This document shows, piece after piece, positions 21,707 to 63,726 of a stretch of DNA of 64,000 nt (the first letter of the stretch is position 1; every line of letters starts with the position of its first letter). This DNA comes from Escherichia phage fp01, in sequence record NC_048731.1. One strand, 5' to 3'. Made by a program: the position numbers and the translations under genes. The notes under the pieces were generated by a model. The model saw nothing but the letters and a program-made list of their open reading frames with translations, ran no database searches and was not told where the DNA came from.

Positions 21707-24700
21707 TTAAGAATTTCCTAATGTTTTCAGACTAGCACCGTTCTCATTCAGAGCTAATTCTACTGCGTCTCTTAGAGCACTACTATTACTAGAAGCAAAC
21801 TCTCTAAAACTTGCAGCATCCATAGCACTAATATTCAGGATGATAGGTCTTCCTGAAGTTGAGTTAGATGAGGTTTTTAGCTCATCATTAGGTGTAGCTT
21901 TCATAGGAACCATAGGGGTAACTACTTCTGTACCATGCTCACCCATTTGATAACTAACCCCAGGGTACATATTACCGCCTTCAGCACGAGGAACGAAAGA
22001 GTTAGCACCACCTATACCTTTATCGCCTCTGATATAAGATAGTTCACCTGCATTAGCAGACATGGACACATCTATATTCTTCTGACGTTCTCCTAAGGTT
22101 AGGTAACTAGTTGTATCCGCTCCAGAATCTGCAATAGAAGACATACCAGATGCAGAAGATGCTTGAGCAAGAGCTAAGGCACCTGCTAAACCTGCCGCCA
22201 CCATCAAAGGAATAGAGAACGGGTACGGTACAGCTGTCGCCGCTTGCATTACAGCTACTGCAGTTTGGATGATGATCTGCTTCTTAGCTGCGTCTTGTTG
22301 AATCTTCAGTTTTTCAGCTTCCAACTTCTTCAACTTAGCTTTAGATGCTTCTGATTTACCATCACGTTTCTGCTCTGCTGCAATAGCCTGATCAATTGCA
22401 CTAACCTGCTGACTAGTACTATACTGAATCACAGAAGATACAGCTTGCATACCTGCTGCGATCGTGGAAGTAGTATCTAGTGATTTCATTGAGAACTGAA
22501 TCATAGCATTAGTTAAATTACCCATGCTTTGAGCCACAGCAGTTGCTTCTGAGTTTAGCTCAGATAACTTAGAGATTGCCTGATCATAAGAGGCCATCCT
22601 ATTTCCCATATCAGCAAAATCTTTGTCTTTTCCAGATAGTCCAGTTGTAGGAGTATACACAGCACCTAAAGAAGACCCAACAGAAGCTTGCATTTGAGCA
22701 TTACGTTGTGCTGTTAAAGCCGCTATCTGAGCCCTTGTCTTGGCTATTTCAGCATTCCAACGCATCTGCTCATTAGCGTTACCTTTAGTAAGTTCCTTCA
22801 TCTGAGTATAAAAGTCTAACTGCATTTCCATTTTTTGCATTTCCCCTGCCAGAGGGAACATTGAAGTTAGAGTATTTTCAAAGGCTTCCTGCCTTTTACT
22901 GGTCATTTCAGCTTGCTGATCTTGGCGGAATTTCCAGATTTCACGTTCAATTTGGGCTTGAGCACGTCTTGATTGTTCAGCTTCTTTGTGTTTATCTGCT
23001 TGCTTAGAGTACCACTCATACTTTTCTTTTTCAATGGTCAATTCAAGATTTAACTGTGCTAGACGATACTGAGTATCTGTCATAGTACGGTTATTTAAGA
23101 GAGCTATCTCACGATCTACACCCAGGATTTTATCTGTGTAATCCTTGACCTTCTTCTGAGCTTCCATACCCTGATTGGTAAGTTTAAGTTTCTCCAGCTG
23201 AATTTTTTCAATTTCTTTCTCAACAGCTTTATTTCCCTGGTTTGTTTGAAGAACACGGCGTAAAGCAGCTTCTTGCTCTTCTAACTGTTGCAGCTCTAAA
23301 CGTCTACCAGCTTCCTGAGCTTTTTCTTTATCCTTAGTTTGGTTATATACATCAGCTATCTTCTGTTGAACTGCTAACTGGTTCTTAGTCTCATTACCAG
23401 TTAGTTTAACGTACTCAGATAAGGCCTGAGACGCAGTTTTCATTTCAGACAGAGTATTGTAACCTAGGTTAAGATTTTTAACGTATTCATCAGCACTCTT
23501 ACCAGTACCTAGAGATAGAGATTCTATGTTTTTTATAGCATCTGCTAAAGTAGCACTAGTTTTAGCAGCAGTATCTGTATTCTGAGCAACGTTCTGTATA
23601 TCATTAGCTAAGTCACTAGCAGTTTTCTTAGTCTGATTGTACGCTTTCTGCTGCTCAGTTAATCCTTTTAATACAGTAGAGTTAAAATCGTATACAGCAT
23701 CAGGATCAGTAGTGTCTCTTTGTAGATTAATTTGCTTCTGAAACTCTGGACTAGCCTTTGCAGCAGCAGCCCCAGCAGCTTGATACGCTGATTTCCAAGC
23801 ATTTAGGTTCTCTGTAGAATCCTCTACTTCCTTACCAAGTCTAGTTACTTGTAGACCCATAGCTGCAGTTTCTGCTACAAATTGCTTATTGGCCTCCGAA
23901 GCACCTGCTGCTGCAAGACCAACAGGAATACCTTCACCAACTTGACGTATAGCTAGTTTTGTATAGAAATCTGCTTGTTCCATTCGTTTATCGAACTCAG
24001 ATTTTAGCTTATTACGCTTATCAAGAGATTCCTTATACATATCTAGAGCTTTATTATAGCCTTCTTCAGAGGCAGCTAAACTTAAAGCAACAGCACCAAC
24101 ATTGGTAGGGTCTATCTGTCTATTAGTTTTTTCTTGGGCCCTAGCTGCTTCAGCAGATATAGAAGCCTGAGATGTATAAAATACTGTGTTGATAGCATCA
24201 ATTACTGGCCCTAAATATTTAGCAGCAGCTTGTTGTATTTTTCTTAGTGCAGCATCTGCATTAGCAGCAAATTGCTCCCACGGAGTTGCACGTAGTACTT
24301 CATCTAGGTAGCCAAATCGCTTAGTAGATTCAGCAATTACCGCGTTAGCGTATGCTTGTTGTTTCTGGAAGGTAGTAAGACTATTAACATTATATGTTAT
24401 ACCTGTGTTTGCAGCATTTAACTGTTTAACATAATCAGCGTATGCGTCATTAAGACGGATAGTGACACCAAGTTCATCCAGAAGTTCGATTTCTTGTTTA
24501 GATACGCCCTTAATTACACGGTTAAGTGCATCAGTCATATCAACGCCAAGAACAGCAGCCGCACGACGAGCTACTAAACCAAATTTATTAAGTTGTTCGG
24601 CATCAAATCCATAAGCGGATGCTGAAGACGCCTGTCTCATTGCTTCCTCAAAAGAAATAGCATATCCAGCAGCTTCTTGTAGCGATCTAGCAAGGGTCTG

Positions 24701-36559: not shown

Positions 36560-38317
36560 TTAGGTAAGGCGTTGAACTGTTACTCTTAATCTAGGTAGGA
36601 AAACCGCACTACCTAAACTTACGTGCATAACTACCCCTAACTCTACATTTCCATTTCCTAGATTTTTAACTGTATATGTGAAACTATTTCTACTTAGTGC
36701 ATTATTAGGTGTGTATCTAAATGCAGATGTAGTATGAAATGGTACTAAGTAACCTACAGGTAATGTTAAAATCTGGTGGAATATTGCATCTCCATTACTA
36801 TAGCTATAAGCCCTTCTTCCCTGCACCTGAAATACACCGTTATTCCATGTATTAGCCGGAACACCAGCACAATTAAGATTACCAGATATAACTTCAGTAG
36901 TAAGAATAACGGTAGCATTACCTCCTGGAATTCCTAGTCCAATAGTAGATAGAGCCACGTATCTGTCTCCAGTTCCGGGGTAGTAAGGGGTAATATCATC
37001 CCCCATGTAAGAACTACCAACATTTCCACTAAAAAGTCTCAGAGGAACTGAAGAAGGCCCCCAAACAACACCATGTTCATTACCAATAGTATTATTACTT
37101 GAGTTTACGTACCATTGCTTACCCGCTCCGAATTTGTAAATACTAATTTGAGACTTAGCCCCTCCATAGTCTACGGGAGACCATAAACTTCCATTACTAG
37201 AGCCTACAAGTTCGCACCTTGCAGTGGTATCTCCAAAGGCTCCAGTGTACGCTGCGTTATTTCCGACGTATTCCATATCTGGCCTATAGCCTAAGTTACC
37301 AAAAGCATTCTGGTTAATAAACTTATATCCAGTATTCGGTAAACTAACCCCTTTTATAGTAAAATTAGAGGGGGAGATAAGAATATCTGAACCAGTAAAA
37401 GGATTACCAGAGATACCCATATTACCATTAGAATACCTCAGATTAAGTACATACCAAATAACCTTAGTAGGAGTTATGTTATACCAATCCTGTAATATTG
37501 TAGCATTACCAGATTGATTAGCTAAATTAGTTGTAGAACCCCTACAAACAAATCTGTTACCTCCATCGTGGTACATAGTATTTACGCTACCAGGAAGACC
37601 TTGTCTTACCCCGCCATACCCACGTATGTTAGAGCTACAAACATAGAACCAATCGTGTCCTCTGTGTGCTGATCCTAAAGGAGACATCCATCCCGGATCC
37701 CAGTAATATGGATTATTACCATCTATAGGTACTGTACTACTATTAGTAGGAAAACCCAGCTGTGCAAAAGCTTCTGCAACAGTAATACCTACTGGAGCTC
37801 CTGCACCTGGCCTAACTATACCATGATAAGTACTATGTAGGGTGGTCCCACCAGTACCATTTCTAGAGATAGATTCTTCATGCCCTATAGATGGGTTATA
37901 GTTATATGTGCCAGATGCCAGGCTATTACCAAATGCAAATCCACTAGTTTGGGAAACGCTAGCAAAAGATCTAAAAGGATCTGCTTGAGTGGCAACTATA
38001 GTTTGACCTACTTTACTCTGAGTACCATTAAGAAAAGCCCTATGAGTACCATTAATCTCAATAGCAGTTAGTATAACTCTACCTGGGTCATTGGATTTAA
38101 TATTTATTATGTCAGAGGGCATCTGACATACAAAAAACCCATTTCCAGCATTTCCTAACCCGGCCTCATAAGTACCATCAACTAGGACAAATGGCATATC
38201 ACTATGAAAAATACTATTGGCATTTGGACTATAGTGACGATTAATGTCACCCCCAGATTCAGTATTTAAAGATAGTACGGTCTTACCATCGCTATATTTT
38301 CCAGCGAAAAAACCCAT
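36560..38317 (-). CDS. receptor-binding tail protein (T5 pb5/Oad-like)
   Basis: 585 aa Gly/Asn/Ser-rich beta-type protein at the end of the late module, divergently paired with an Llp-like lipoprotein gene as in T5; 'AGGAG' RBS. Confidence 0.55.
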
Positions 38318-38402: not shown

Positions 38403-38669
38403 ATGAAAAAGTTTGTGATTGCACTAGTTGCCGCAGTTATGTTATCTGGTTGTGCACCTGCTCCCAAACCATTTTGTACTGGATTTGTAAAATCTTTTGG
38501 TGGTGCGGGAGAAGAACATTACGGTCTCAAGATTCAAAAAGTTCGTATTAAGGGAGATCGCTTCCCAGTAGTACAGCTCCGTACTAAGTTTGGGTGGTGG
38601 GATCTCAGTCAGTTTGACCTTAAATATGGTGATTGTAAATTTAAACTAGAGCAATCTAACTACCTGTAA
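38403..38669 (+). CDS. llp: superinfection-exclusion lipoprotein (Llp-like)
   Basis: Signal peptide with lipobox 'LSGC'; small size; divergent from the receptor-binding protein gene. Confidence 0.6.
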   Translation: MKKFVIALVAAVMLSGCAPAPKPFCTGFVKSFGGAGEEHYGLKIQKVRIKGDRFPVVQLRTKFGWWDLSQFDLKYGDCKFKLEQSNYL

Positions 38670-59255: not shown

Positions 59256-59672
59256 TTAATCTACTGCATGGATAAATCTTTTCCTAACTAGATACATAGT
59301 TATTGGGTAAATTGAGTACATAAGTATCGGGGAGAAAAGGGTGAAATAAGCTGTAACTCCCCCAGCTAACATCAAAGGTATTAATGCTAGAGTAAGGGCC
59401 ATAAGAATCATGCCGAATGAAACAGCCAAAGCTATGGATATAGGATTCTCTAGTTCCATCCATAGCCAACAATATTTCGTATCTCTATGGCAATTGCATT
59501 TACAAACGCCGAATGAACCCATAATTATATACTCTAGTCCGTGAATAACCTTTATTAATAAGCTATTTCGGGTAGTTAATGCAAGGATAGTAAAGACTAT
59601 CATTAAAATGAATACTACTAGACTTATTTTCCAGATACCTAGCAGCATCATAGTGAATAGTTCTGCAAACAT
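59256..59672 (-). CDS. multi-pass membrane protein with 'CKCNCH' motif
   Basis: Four hydrophobic segments; located just downstream of endolysin. Confidence 0.45.
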   Translation of the reverse strand: MFAELFTMMLLGIWKISLVVFILMIVFTILALTTRNSLLIKVIHGLEYIIMGSFGVCKCNCHRDTKYCWLWMELENPISIALAVSFGMILMALTLALIPLMLAGGVTAYFTLFSPILMYSIYPITMYLVRKRFIHAVD

Positions 59673-59750: not shown

Positions 59751-60164
59751 TTAAACTAGTTCTACATGACCGCCATCATAGGTACCACGTTTTATTTCAT
59801 CGTGATAGTCTCCCGAAGCATTCCAATCAGCACCAAAACGAAGTTTAATGCCTAGTTCTTTACCTGCTTGTTCAAAAGCCTTTTTAACTGCCCAAAATGC
59901 TTCTAAGTCATTCCAATCAATCTTGCCATTAATGTATGGAGCAAAATCAAGAGCATCCCCAGTAATATGCTTGCTTTTACTAGGATCTTTTAAAAATGAA
60001 GTACCATTAGCAATATTCTGGGCACTTTGTGCTACTGTACGAATACCCTGTACGATCGTGAAATCATATGGAGATAATTCTAAAGCTCTACGAGCTACTT
60101 TTTGTAGCTCTGGCTTAACGGTAGCTAATTGTTTTTCGCTATTTTTACCAAATTTAAAACTCAT
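59751..60164 (-). CDS. lys: endolysin, L-alanyl-D-glutamate peptidase type (T5 Lys-like, 137 aa)
   Basis: Sequence 'MSFKFGKNSEKQLATVKPELQKV...' matches T5 endolysin as I recall it; coupled to holin gene. Confidence 0.8.
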   Translation of the reverse strand: MSFKFGKNSEKQLATVKPELQKVARRALELSPYDFTIVQGIRTVAQSAQNIANGTSFLKDPSKSKHITGDALDFAPYINGKIDWNDLEAFWAVKKAFEQAGKELGIKLRFGADWNASGDYHDEIKRGTYDGGHVELV

Positions 60165-60817
60165 ATTGATCTACCTAAAGATCTCTGTTGTGGGGAACAG
60201 AGCTTTGTTAAATACTCGTTAAATTTCTCAGAATCGGCTGCATCTACAGGATTATCTTTCCAAGCAATACCAATATATCCAGCATAGATATTGTTTAGAT
60301 TGAAATACGGACAAGTGTATATGTAATTAAAAGTAACGTTCTTAAACGCAGGTATATTTAACCCCATGTATTTATTTACTTTTACACTTAAATCCGATGC
60401 GTAGTTAAAGCCTTCCAAGTGACGTCTATATAGCTCAGACGTTTTATTTACCGCTTTATCGGCCAAGTCAGCCCTATCTAATTGCGCATTGCTTTCCCAT
60501 GCAATAATGTTAGAATAATCATTAATGGCATCGGGTTTATACTTGACGACAAAAACAGCATCCGCACCCGTTTGAGAAAAGAGTACCATGCTTTTTTCTC
60601 TAGCTACATTAGGAAAGTTATCTATCCTTTGAGTTTGAACATCCTGTAGAACCGCAGACGTGGAGAAAGTCTTTAAGAATGACATCACCTCGCTAGTATT
60701 ACTAACAAATAAGAAAATAATGACAGCAACTAAGATAGTTAGCAGACGTTTAAGAAGCGATGCTGGATCTTTCGCTTCTTGGAGCAGTACCGTTAATAAT
60801 TGTAAGAACTTTTCCAA
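60161..60817 (-). CDS. hol: holin, T4 T-type (single N-terminal TM, large periplasmic domain, 218 aa)
   Basis: One TM 'LLTILVAVIIFLFV' then ~170-aa soluble domain; directly upstream of endolysin. Confidence 0.7.
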   Translation of the reverse strand: MEKFLQLLTVLLQEAKDPASLLKRLLTILVAVIIFLFVSNTSEVMSFLKTFSTSAVLQDVQTQRIDNFPNVAREKSMVLFSQTGADAVFVVKYKPDAINDYSNIIAWESNAQLDRADLADKAVNKTSELYRRHLEGFNYASDLSVKVNKYMGLNIPAFKNVTFNYIYTCPYFNLNNIYAGYIGIAWKDNPVDAADSEKFNEYLTKLCSPQQRSLGRSI

Positions 60818-60973
60818 TTGTAACCTCCTCTAACCAGTACCATTATACTAATTTTGGAGGAAAATTACAATGTGTTTTTAAAGATCACTTCTGGAGCATA
60901 AAATTTTGTCGTTGTCAAGAAGAATTTTAGATAAAAGAAAAGCCAGGGTCGTTAAACCCTGGCTTAAAATTAC

Positions 60974-61585: not shown

Positions 61586-62338
61586 TTATCCAACTAGTGG
61601 TTCTAGCTCTAAGTCACAGAAGTTATAAACTTCTAGTTTAAGGTTATTGATACCATCGAATTTATTAACTAATTCGTGAGTAATATATTTTGCAGGAATG
61701 CCACTTTCAGATGGATGATCTGATTTAATAGTGAACTTCTGCTCAGCGGGTACTACATTTACTATCAAAGAATCCATATCTAAATGGTTTGTTTCTCTGA
61801 GTAGCTCTCCTTCATTGGGGAATCTAACATCTGTTATTACGGCGACGTCTGGGTCGTCTTTAGCGATGGATTGCTCCAGAATTATGAGCCAAATGCGTTC
61901 ATGCACCAGCTGCCTTCCTAGCTCTGTTCCTACGAGCTGTAACATTTTTCTCGGAGAAATAAATAAGCTATAAAGACCGTCTTCTTTATTCTCTGAGATA
62001 AGTTGTTGAGGATTAAGATATTTTTCCTCAAAAATAGGCCAAACGTACGAGAAGTCTTCAAACTTATCGATACCGTACTTAAACCACACATCTCTGGCTC
62101 GCTCCAGTTGAGATTGTGTGACCGTAAACCATTGGTCAACCTCTTTCCCCCTGCGCTCTCCTAGAAACTCTGGAGTTACACCGAGGATTACGGATGCAAG
62201 TTCATAAACGGGCTTAGCAAAACTATAACGACGGGGTAAACACGTTGGATACGTGTCATTACACCAATCGATAATTAATTTTGCAACGGTATCTTTTCCC
62301 GAACCAGCTTCACCATGTAAACCGACTAATACTGACAT
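61586..62338 (-). CDS. dnk: deoxynucleoside monophosphate kinase
   Basis: P-loop 'GLHGEAGSGKDT'; 250 aa; matches T5 dNMP kinase in size and position. Confidence 0.65.
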   Translation of the reverse strand: MSVLVGLHGEAGSGKDTVAKLIIDWCNDTYPTCLPRRYSFAKPVYELASVILGVTPEFLGERRGKEVDQWFTVTQSQLERARDVWFKYGIDKFEDFSYVWPIFEEKYLNPQQLISENKEDGLYSLFISPRKMLQLVGTELGRQLVHERIWLIILEQSIAKDDPDVAVITDVRFPNEGELLRETNHLDMDSLIVNVVPAEQKFTIKSDHPSESGIPAKYITHELVNKFDGINNLKLEVYNFCDLELEPLVG

Positions 62339-62691
62339 TAATCTTTCCTATTGTTAATTGGTGGATAGTAAACTAAGCAACGTTTTTCTTGTAAATCTTG
62401 GCGATAGAAGCAAACCATACCAGTCAGTCGTGAAATGTAAGAGTAAACTGCTTCCTCACATTTTGCTTTTGCATTCCAATCTTTATATGGTACAACAACT
62501 ACTACGCCATCTTCTCCATTTGTAGCTAATTTCTTTTCAAACTTAAAGTCAAAGCTACAAGGTTGAAGTCCTTTAGGCCAGTCTACATGAGCTTGCTTTA
62601 ACTCATGAGATGGCTCTGGTTTTATTTCTTCTGCACAGCCTGTGATTGTGATTGCGGCTGCGAGCAGTATTCCAAGTTTCCAGTTAAACAC
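62338..62691 (-). CDS. lipoprotein (117 aa)
   Basis: Signal peptide with lipobox 'ITGC'; Cys-rich mature part; overlaps upstream gene by 70 nt. Confidence 0.55.
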   Translation of the reverse strand: MFNWKLGILLAAAITITGCAEEIKPEPSHELKQAHVDWPKGLQPCSFDFKFEKKLATNGEDGVVVVVPYKDWNAKAKCEEAVYSYISRLTGMVCFYRQDLQEKRCLVYYPPINNRKD

Positions 62692-63071
62692 GCTAATCTT
62701 TCCTCGAACTCTTTATTCTGCTTTTTAGCAATTAATGTTACCAACCCAGGCTTTGCAGCTATAATATCTTGGCGACTAAGTGCTTTATCTAACTGCTTGA
62801 TCTTTTTGTCTAGATCTGCTTGCGAAATATTATTCATTGTGAAATACTGATTCATTCTAGTCTCACGAAGTTCACTTTCAGCTTTCACCTTATTAAGCGA
62901 AGTCTCTAGAGAAGAGATCTTTTTAGTAGCTACTGCAAGATCACCTGCTAGAGTCTCAACCTTATTAACTAAGTGATAAGCACCGAATCCGATGCCTATC
63001 GCTAGACCTGCTCCCAGGATAAACCACTTACCGTGCCATATTCCTGAAAGAAGTTTTTGTATCAAATCCAT
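62622..63071 (-). CDS. membrane-anchored coiled-coil protein (i-spanin-like)
   Basis: N-terminal TM 'WFILGAGLAIGIGFGAY' followed by heptad-rich periplasmic region. Confidence 0.45.
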   Translation of the reverse strand: MDLIQKLLSGIWHGKWFILGAGLAIGIGFGAYHLVNKVETLAGDLAVATKKISSLETSLNKVKAESELRETRMNQYFTMNNISQADLDKKIKQLDKALSRQDIIAAKPGLVTLIAKKQNKEFEERLACLTGNLEYCSQPQSQSQAVQKK

Positions 63072-63726
63072 GCGCTGCTAACCTGTCTTTATCTGATACT
63101 TTAATCATATCAGGCTCACCAGTTCCTAGTACACCGAAGATATACTGTTCGAGAACTTGGTGTAAACGGTATAAGTTACTTTCAATTTCCTGCCACGGAA
63201 TACCTGACTGATGGAAACGAATGTTAGTCTGAATCACGAAGTTACGAACATCATCGTTATCGTTCTTCTTGATACCTTTCACATATGCAATCGGTACACG
63301 CAGTTCGGATAAGATACGTTCTGCTTTAGGTTTTGCTTCAACGAGCAAATCACGCATTGTTTCACGAACATCTCCACGACTCTTATCCATTAAGTAAGAG
63401 CGAGCATGCAATCCCATCTCTTCCATTTTATCGAACATAGTGTCGAGATTAAACGTTTTGAAGCTAAATGCTGGATGCCAGCAGTACAGCTCGTGTAACC
63501 AGTAAACTTCACCTGCAACAAATAGTGGATTCACAAAATATTCGAAATCACCACGGAAAGATAGCGAACCATCACGAAATACCTGGCGACTATGCACGAT
63601 GTTCTTTTCTGCATCATCAGTTACTTTAACCAGTAGCTCTTCGGTTTTACGCTCCCAAACACGATCTGCATCAAATAAACTGTTCTGCAAATCATATACG
63701 TCGGCGAATTTAGAAATGATCCTCAT
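63028..63726 (-). CDS. hypothetical protein (232 aa)
   Basis: ORF with PN25-type promoter upstream. Confidence 0.5.
   Translation of the reverse strand: MRIISKFADVYDLQNSLFDADRVWERKTEELLVKVTDDAEKNIVHSRQVFRDGSLSFRGDFEYFVNPLFVAGEVYWLHELYCWHPAFSFKTFNLDTMFDKMEEMGLHARSYLMDKSRGDVRETMRDLLVEAKPKAERILSELRVPIAYVKGIKKNDNDDVRNFVIQTNIRFHQSGIPWQEIESNLYRLHQVLEQYIFGVLGTGEPDMIKVSDKDRLAAHGFDTKTSFRNMAR

Follow-up and report, generated by a model that had tools for sequence, protein, structure and literature searches.

Overlapping genes for a membrane-anchored protein and a lipoprotein in a T5-like phage: a probable two-component spanin of the T4 PseT.3/PseT.2 type

In the 64,000 nucleotides of Escherichia phage fp01 analysed here (the whole stretch is called the window below), a gene for a membrane-anchored protein runs out of frame into a gene for a lipoprotein. 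The question raised by this locus is whether the two proteins form a spanin or whether the lipoprotein is an exclusion or envelope-modifying factor. The first-pass annotation had read it as an overlapped i-spanin/o-spanin pair and had kept the second option open, given that the lipoprotein is large and Cys-rich rather than Pro-rich. The evidence presented here favors the spanin: with a probability of about 0.93, the pair is a two-component spanin of the T4 PseT.3/PseT.2 type from a T5-like phage. This T5-family, T4-type spanin is already known, and the finding is real but ordinary. The features of the locus are the following:

62622..63071, minus strand: i-spanin gene, ATG start, 149 aa; orthologous to T5.045, homologous to T4 PseT.3
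62967..63023, minus strand: N-terminal transmembrane helix of the i-spanin, residues 17-35 (hydropathy maximum 1.77)
62664..62690, minus strand: CX7C motif at the i-spanin C-terminus, C128-L-T-G-N-L-E-Y-C136, inside the overlap
62622..62691, minus strand: 70-nt stretch shared by both genes in different reading frames
62338..62691, minus strand: o-spanin gene, GTG start, 117 aa; orthologous to T5.044, homologous to T4 PseT.2
62701..62705, minus strand: GAGGA Shine-Dalgarno sequence for the o-spanin GTG, 10 nt upstream of it and inside the i-spanin gene
62635..62691, minus strand: lipoprotein signal peptide of the o-spanin with lipobox ITGC (residues 16-19, Cys19)
62377..62412, minus strand: C94...C105 pair of the o-spanin (MVCFYRQDLQEKRC), aligning with T4 PseT.2 C87/C98

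The 70-nt overlap between the 149-aa and 117-aa proteins, the ITGC lipobox of the latter and the single N-terminal transmembrane helix of the former had all been described in the first-pass annotation. The overlap is confirmed to the nucleotide, the lipobox is present at residues 16-19, and residues 17-35 make up the one hydrophobic segment of the longer protein.

Judging from nucleotide similarity, the source phage of the window is T5-like (Tequintavirus). A nucleotide search with the 4.1-kb neighbourhood of the spanin genes matched more than 400 T5-like phages, and the Tequintavirus genomes of Citrobacter phage Cit2 and Salmonella phage FGS009 are 98% identical to the window over this neighbourhood. 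The T5 counterparts of the pair are T5.045 (147 aa, compared with 149 aa here; 128/139 residues identical, 92%) and T5.044 (117 aa in both phages; 108/117 identical, 92%). They carry the same cysteines, their genes share the identical 70-nt overlap (22802..22871 in T5), and the downstream neighbours (dnk, ClpP-like, terminator, holin and endolysin) are the same. The T5 locus differs in the first ~10 residues of the i-spanin, which are unlike those of the window, and in the presence of the HNH homing endonuclease gene hegF directly upstream of the i-spanin gene. No such gene is found in the window, where the i-spanin gene overlaps a 232-aa ORF by 44 nt at the place at which T5 carries hegF. The T5 proteins have been classified before: Kongari et al. 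2018 (PMC6139136) defined two T5 families of 10 members each, one for i-spanins and one for o-spanins, and gave 70 bp as the overlap of the T5 spanins. The overlapped architecture agrees with this published description and was the correct primary reading of the locus. The SpaninDataBase criterion for a family sets a minimum of 40% both for identity and for the share of the length that it covers, and both window proteins exceed this threshold for the respective T5 families. RefSeq names T5.044 and T5.045 "Rz-like spanin", and the original annotation of T5 notes their likeness to T4 PseT.2/PseT.3.

The T4 proteins fall in the same two protein families as the window pair. The i-spanin matches PHROG 739 "Rz-like spanin" (E 2.3e-37), as does T4 PseT.3 (E 1.3e-37), and PHROG 812, also an "Rz-like spanin" family, is the only one matched by the o-spanin (E 3.5e-30) and the one to which T4 PseT.2 belongs (E 5e-42). 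In BLASTP comparisons, the i-spanin is 28% identical to PseT.3 over 105 aa, with a common A-x-K-P-G-L-V motif, and the o-spanin is 29% identical to PseT.2 over 107 aa; the pairwise alignments span nearly the full length of the proteins. PseT.3 has the same N-terminal transmembrane domain (TMD) followed by a first helix with coiled-coil character, and PseT.2 has a lipobox, a W-P motif, a core made of a beta-sheet and then a helix, and a C-terminal C...C pair, and it is likewise not Pro-rich. C94 and C105 of the o-spanin align with C87 and C98 of PseT.2 (MVCFYRQDLQEKRC compared with M(I/T)CYYRQELKEDKC). In T4, each of these two cysteines is essential for lysis, pseT.3/pseT.2 complement a lambda RzamRz1am lysogen, and PseT.2 is described as folded, with a beta-alpha-beta organization, in contrast to Rz1, which is unstructured (PMC6139136). 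The T4 genes are located far from t and e (PMC6139136), which resembles the placement of the window genes away from the holin/endolysin operon. Nevertheless, the T4 pair is only 24-29% identical to the window pair and differs from it in several respects: its genes are "separated" (with a 4-nt overlap) whereas those of the window overlap by 70 nt, PseT.3 has no Cys whereas the window i-spanin has a conserved C-terminal CX7C, and PseT.2 has two periplasmic Cys whereas the window o-spanin has four, the extra ones being C45 and C78.

The anatomy of the i-spanin is that of a protein anchored by its N-terminus. Residues 17-35 (FILGAGLAIGIGFGAYHLV) form the best 19-residue Kyte-Doolittle window (mean 1.77), and an equivalent TMD is found in T4 PseT.3 and in the eight other Demerecviridae i-spanins compared, although in Eos only with a re-chosen start codon. 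The polar region that follows is helical in a single-sequence AlphaFold model, which is all-helical and of low confidence (pLDDT 64). The periplasmic part had been called heptad-rich, a description that applies to the first helix, as the a/d hydrophobic periodicity is strong at residues ~31-70 (0.8-1.0, a value reached by 1.7% of shuffles). It does not apply to residues 84-126, where the periodicity is not significant when compared with shuffles. The C-terminus of all the Demerecviridae i-spanins compared carries the motif C-x-[TSV]-G-[NS]-x-x-x-C, which is absent from T4 PseT.3. The two Cys of the window i-spanin would be periplasmic and available for homotypic disulfide bonds, as would the four of the mature o-spanin. 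The tail that follows the motif (SQPQSQSQAVQKK) is variable and of low complexity, as expected from a by-product of the gene overlap.

The o-spanin has the anatomy of an outer membrane lipoprotein. Its signal peptide, MFNWKLGILLAAAITITG up to the lipobox Cys, is made up of an n-region with K5, the hydrophobic core LGILLAAAITI and the lipobox ITGC. The residues after the lipobox Cys are A-E-E; since position +2 is thus occupied by Ala, not Asp, and there is no inner-membrane retention signal, sorting to the outer membrane is expected. The mature protein has 98 aa, four Cys (45, 78, 94 and 105) and 7% Pro, so that its first-pass description as Cys-rich rather than Pro-rich was accurate. A large, Cys-rich and non-Pro-rich lipoprotein is not an anomaly in this context, as these are family traits of the T4/T5-type o-spanins (PHROG 812). 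The AlphaFold model of the o-spanin, obtained from an alignment of 19 sequences, has a mean pLDDT of 80, with values of 88-95 over most of the core, and consists of an unstructured linker (residues 20-35), a beta-hairpin (strands at 50-55 and 61-66) and, at residues 69-96, a long helix. This predicted structure appears to fit broadly the linker, beta-sheet and helix organization described for PseT.2; the short beta2 strand described for the T4 protein is not seen in the model. The best named structural matches of the model in the predicted viral structures of BFVD are labelled "outer membrane lipoprotein o-spanin" (Providencia phage PR1), "Rz1" (Shigella phage Sf25), "PseT.2" (Acinetobacter phage 133) and "O-spanin" (Pseudomonas phage AAT-1). 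The PDB sequence search returned no solved-structure relative of either spanin protein, and the Pfam-A and NCBIfam scans gave no meaningful match for either. The sub-threshold matches of those scans (FtsL, CNOT1 and MctB) were rejected as reflecting only a TMD-plus-helix composition. The Pfam accession PF26831 is precomputed on homologues of the o-spanin; the Pfam scan of the window protein did not return it.

The conservation of these features was studied among the relatives of both proteins. When 1.84 billion representative proteins were searched exhaustively, 20 relatives of the o-spanin were recovered, and a word-indexed protein search found only five close homologues. The alignment (n=20) comprises 15 representatives, T4 PseT.2, the window protein and three sequences from phage loci. 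It leaves out fragments, P0014, which is truncated, and P0017 (1429 aa, with seven short matched stretches), which was regarded as unrelated or of low complexity. Four residues are invariant (20/20), namely the lipobox Cys, W38, C94 and C105, and none of the aligned sequences has Asp at +2. C45 and C78 are both present in 15 of the 20 and both absent from the other five, and one is never found without the other, which is the pattern that an additional intramolecular disulfide would produce. At the level of the locus, the overlapped pair (by 34-88 nt) is present in seven other Demerecviridae (Sugarland, PSTCR5, DU_PP_V, KEY, Eos, KKP_3711 and T5), which span several genera and unclassified lineages and whose spanin proteins show 25-49% identity. 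In each of them, a TMD-bearing i-spanin is followed by an overlapping o-spanin, directly upstream of dnk.

The recurrence of the pair, with its TMD, lipobox and overlap, at 25-49% protein identity shows that both overlapping frames are coding. In the window, the nucleotides that encode the CX7C motif of the i-spanin also encode, in the other frame, M-F-N-W-K-L-G-I-L of the o-spanin. This dual use explains the unusual conservation, from genus to genus, of the "NWK" in the signal peptide of the o-spanin. In LmqsSP1, a 232-aa endonuclease gene (PHROG 681) lies between the spanin genes, both of which are intact. Since the genes no longer overlap in this phage, "NWK" is lost there (MHKIK). A similar arrangement has been reported for Shivani and phiR201, in which the spanin genes are ~700 bp apart with a homing endonuclease between them (PMC6139136).

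The position of the pair relative to the other lysis genes also deserves attention. In order of transcription on the minus strand, the region is made up of the 232-aa ORF (PHROG 4243), the i-spanin, the o-spanin, a dNMP kinase, a ClpP-like protease, a hairpin, the holin and the endolysin. The elements that define the lysis region are:

60940..60965, minus strand: strong terminator-like hairpin, 11-bp stem followed by a T run
60161..60817, minus strand: T-type holin (Pfam PF11031 Phage_holin_T, E 8e-114)
59751..60164, minus strand: endolysin, an M15-type peptidase (PHROG 465 endolysin, E 2e-54)

The endolysin also matches Pfam Peptidase_M15_4, weakly and below the curated cut-off. The holin start (60817) is 1521 nt downstream of the spanin genes, which bears out the earlier estimate of ~1.5 kb between the pair and the holin/endolysin genes. 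The hairpin at 60940-60965 closes the unit formed by orf232, the spanin genes, dnk and the ClpP-like gene, ahead of the holin promoter, and a terminator is annotated at the equivalent position in T5, Sugarland and KEY. As promoter-like sites are not in excess (15, compared with 15.5 in shuffles), only promoter and terminator sites that coincide with those annotated in T5 were used to read the operons. According to this reading, the spanin genes appear to lie outside the holin/endolysin operon, in a unit with nucleotide-metabolism genes (the dNMP kinase), and the unit running from orf232 to the ClpP-like gene is probably expressed early. In the spanin model, early synthesis would do no harm, since the restraint on spanins lasts until wall degradation. 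The order orf232, i-spanin, o-spanin, dnk, ClpP-like, terminator, holin and endolysin is kept in T5, Sugarland, DU_PP_V and KEY, and PSTCR5, Eos and KKP_3711 have the same order in this lysis region with partial or mislabelled annotation. The same set of lysis genes is found in two genome announcements of T5-like phages, those of Shivani (PMC4342426) and Sugarland. The pair completes the lysis set of the phage, which consists of a T-type holin, an M15 peptidase endolysin and T4-type spanins.

The comparison with lambda shows what is common to the functional class. Rz/Rz1 also pair an outer-membrane lipoprotein with a type II protein of the inner membrane whose periplasmic domain is helical; their genes have DNA in common, and cysteines occur in the periplasmic parts. 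Nevertheless, there is no detectable sequence similarity with the window pair, which has no Pfam match, including to the lambda-type spanin models, and Rz1 is fully embedded in Rz whereas the genes of the window only overlap. Mature Rz1 is a Pro-rich and unstructured protein of ~40 aa, in contrast to the 98 aa, 7% Pro and predicted folded core (AlphaFold model) of the mature window o-spanin. From the remote but consistent homology with T4 (24-29%), the anatomy and the synteny, we infer a role of the pair in the lysis caused by the window's phage; the interaction of the two proteins and their disulfide pattern are predicted from the accepted model of spanin action and from the work on T4. In such a scenario, the i-spanin would be held in the inner membrane by its N-terminal helix, with the N-terminus in and the C-terminus out, and would expose a mostly helical domain to the periplasm. 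The o-spanin would acquire its lipid at Cys19 and be sorted to the outer membrane, into the inner leaflet. The periplasmic ends of both proteins would bind to each other to form bridges threaded through the peptidoglycan mesh. Upon triggering of the T-type holin and degradation of the peptidoglycan by the endolysin, the freed spanin complexes would fuse or disrupt both membranes, and the outer membrane would thus be removed as the last barrier to phage release. C94 and C105 presumably behave as their T4 counterparts, with an intramolecular bond that isomerizes to intermolecular bonds.

Several alternatives may be opposed to this scenario. By itself or together with the membrane protein, the lipoprotein could be an early superinfection-exclusion or envelope-modifying factor that blocks the receptor, like T5 Llp/Cor. 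This idea draws on the early-looking unit that contains the lipoprotein gene, in a common operon with the dNMP kinase, on the larger size and lower Pro content of the protein compared with lambda Rz1, and on the fact that T5-like phages do encode exclusion lipoproteins, which are also small phage-encoded proteins with a type II signal peptide. Yet the o-spanin has no similarity to the Cor/Llp family beyond the signal peptide, to which the likeness is confined, and neither protein of the pair matches a PADLOC defence model. The o-spanin belongs to the family of T4 PseT.2, whose essential Cys pair it keeps, and across genera its gene is always paired with an overlapping i-spanin gene. Moreover, the window has an exclusion-type lipoprotein of its own:

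38403..38669: Cor/Llp-type exclusion lipoprotein, 88 aa (PHROG 1119 "Cor superinfection exclusion protein", E 1.7e-26)
36560-38317: receptor-binding tail protein gene (PHROG 4815, E 4e-273)

The Cor-type gene is divergent from the adjoining receptor-binding protein gene, a layout which is the classical one of T5 llp/oad. It is set apart from the o-spanin gene both by its family (PHROG 1119, not 812) and by this position, and a search for lipoprotein signals throughout the window returned two proteins only, the o-spanin and the 88-aa Cor-type protein. The suggestion of an exclusion or envelope-modifying lipoprotein thus loses its support to the composition typical of PHROG 812, the T4-aligned Cys pair and the separate Cor gene, and we regard it as extremely unlikely.

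Another possibility is that the pair derives from spanins and has become dispensable or redundant, or has gained an additional role linked to early expression, the outer membrane being disrupted mainly by another factor. The literature leaves some room for it: no direct genetic or biochemical test of a T5-family spanin pair was found in the searchable literature, where the search for T5 spanin tests included phage transposon-essentiality preprints, in which nothing on T5-like phages was found. In addition, the genes are placed outside the holin/endolysin operon, and Kongari et al. noted phages without spanins (PMC6139136), so that other routes of outer-membrane disruption exist. This possibility is nevertheless difficult to reconcile with the persistence of the lipobox, W38, C94/C105, the TMD, AKPGL and CX7C across Demerecviridae genera at 25-49% identity, or with the integrity of both genes even where a homing endonuclease splits them (LmqsSP1; PMC6139136). 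Besides, the window has no other candidate spanin, and no other lipoprotein except Cor. This possibility seems very improbable. A further reading keeps the spanin and departs from the studied paradigms: the Demerecviridae proteins could follow a more elaborate disulfide scheme, in which each heterodimer would carry three disulfides and activation would be under redox control, or, through early expression, could have an additional envelope role ahead of lysis. The reasons to consider the disulfide scheme are the conserved CX7C of the i-spanin, absent from T4, and the strictly co-occurring C45/C78 of the o-spanin, and we would give these conservation-based ideas a small chance.

The two-component spanin of the T4 type therefore remains the preferred reading, and the modestly new points of this analysis concern its details: the co-occurrence of the extra Cys pair in the o-spanin, the CX7C of the i-spanin, and the dual coding of this motif and the o-spanin signal peptide. 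These points could guide the mutagenesis of a spanin type on which the experimental work found is T4-based. Beyond correct annotation, the assignment matters little, and its use lies in curation, since many GenBank records of T5-like phages call one or both of these genes "hypothetical protein" or mislabel a neighbour. Many other records do label the two genes i-spanin and o-spanin, and some place the i-spanin label on the wrong neighbouring gene. Among the Demerecviridae compared here, the o-spanin of PSTCR5 is present and unannotated, and both spanin starts of Eos are mis-called.

The overlap between the i-spanin and o-spanin genes contains a short segment that is read in two frames.

62664-62691, minus strand: dual-coding stretch of the i-/o-spanin overlap, two reading frames

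One frame of this segment encodes the i-spanin residues C-L-T-G-N-L-E-Y-C, while the other encodes the start of the o-spanin, M-F-N-W-K-L-G-I-L. The 'NWK' of the o-spanin is kept across Demerecviridae genera and lost where the i- and o-spanin genes stand apart. Since its conservation follows the overlap and ends with the separation of the genes, the sequence comparison suggests that the constraint on 'NWK' comes from the CX7C motif of the i-spanin.

The spanin pair is flanked or split by homing endonuclease genes in some relatives. In T5, hegF lies directly upstream of the i-spanin, and in LmqsSP1 an HNH gene lies upstream and a 232-aa endonuclease is encoded between the i- and o-spanin. Unlike these loci (L011 4746-5243 in T5 and L007 1842-3443 in LmqsSP1), the corresponding region of the window (62622-63110) has neither a flanking nor a splitting endonuclease gene. 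Correspondingly, the i-spanin differs over its first ~10 residues and the o-spanin in the n-region of its signal peptide.

Another reading frame overlaps the i-spanin gene by 44 nt in the window.

63028-63726, minus strand: 232-aa ORF (PHROG 4243; T5.047)

In the T5-like relatives that were compared, this ORF precedes the i-spanin, although in PSTCR5 a shorter ORF of 133 aa takes its place. T5 and LmqsSP1 have a homing endonuclease gene between the two; in the others the ORF is directly upstream. It had no match in Pfam or NCBIfam. Its label in MT577844, 'i-spanin', is wrong, and no family match was found to support 'DNA polymerase III subunit epsilon', its label in DU_PP_V and JLBYU40.

The records of two relatives have gaps in the annotation of the spanin genes.

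L005 (Providencia phage PSTCR5) 3770-4096: o-spanin, 108 aa, lipobox IVGC
L009 (phage Eos) 2130-2573 and 2501-2824: spanin genes with misplaced annotated starts

The PSTCR5 o-spanin is wholly unannotated. In Eos, the annotated i-spanin start falls downstream of the one that would include the TMD, and that of the o-spanin is 24 nt too far downstream, which shortens the signal peptide.

Two divergently oriented, adjoining genes lie elsewhere in the window.

36560-38317, minus strand: receptor-binding tail protein, 585 aa (PHROG 4815)
38403-38669, plus strand: Cor-type lipoprotein, 88 aa (lipobox LSGC; PHROG 1119)

The lipoprotein matches PHROG 1119 with E 1.7e-26; this family is annotated as 'Cor superinfection exclusion protein'. 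The pair has the same classical arrangement as T5 llp/oad. By homology and position, the lipoprotein gene is the Llp/Cor-type exclusion gene of this phage.

Just downstream of the endolysin gene lies a very hydrophobic ORF, whose T5 counterpart, T5.039, is annotated with four TM domains.

59256-59672, minus strand: 138-aa hydrophobic ORF (PHROG 5944)
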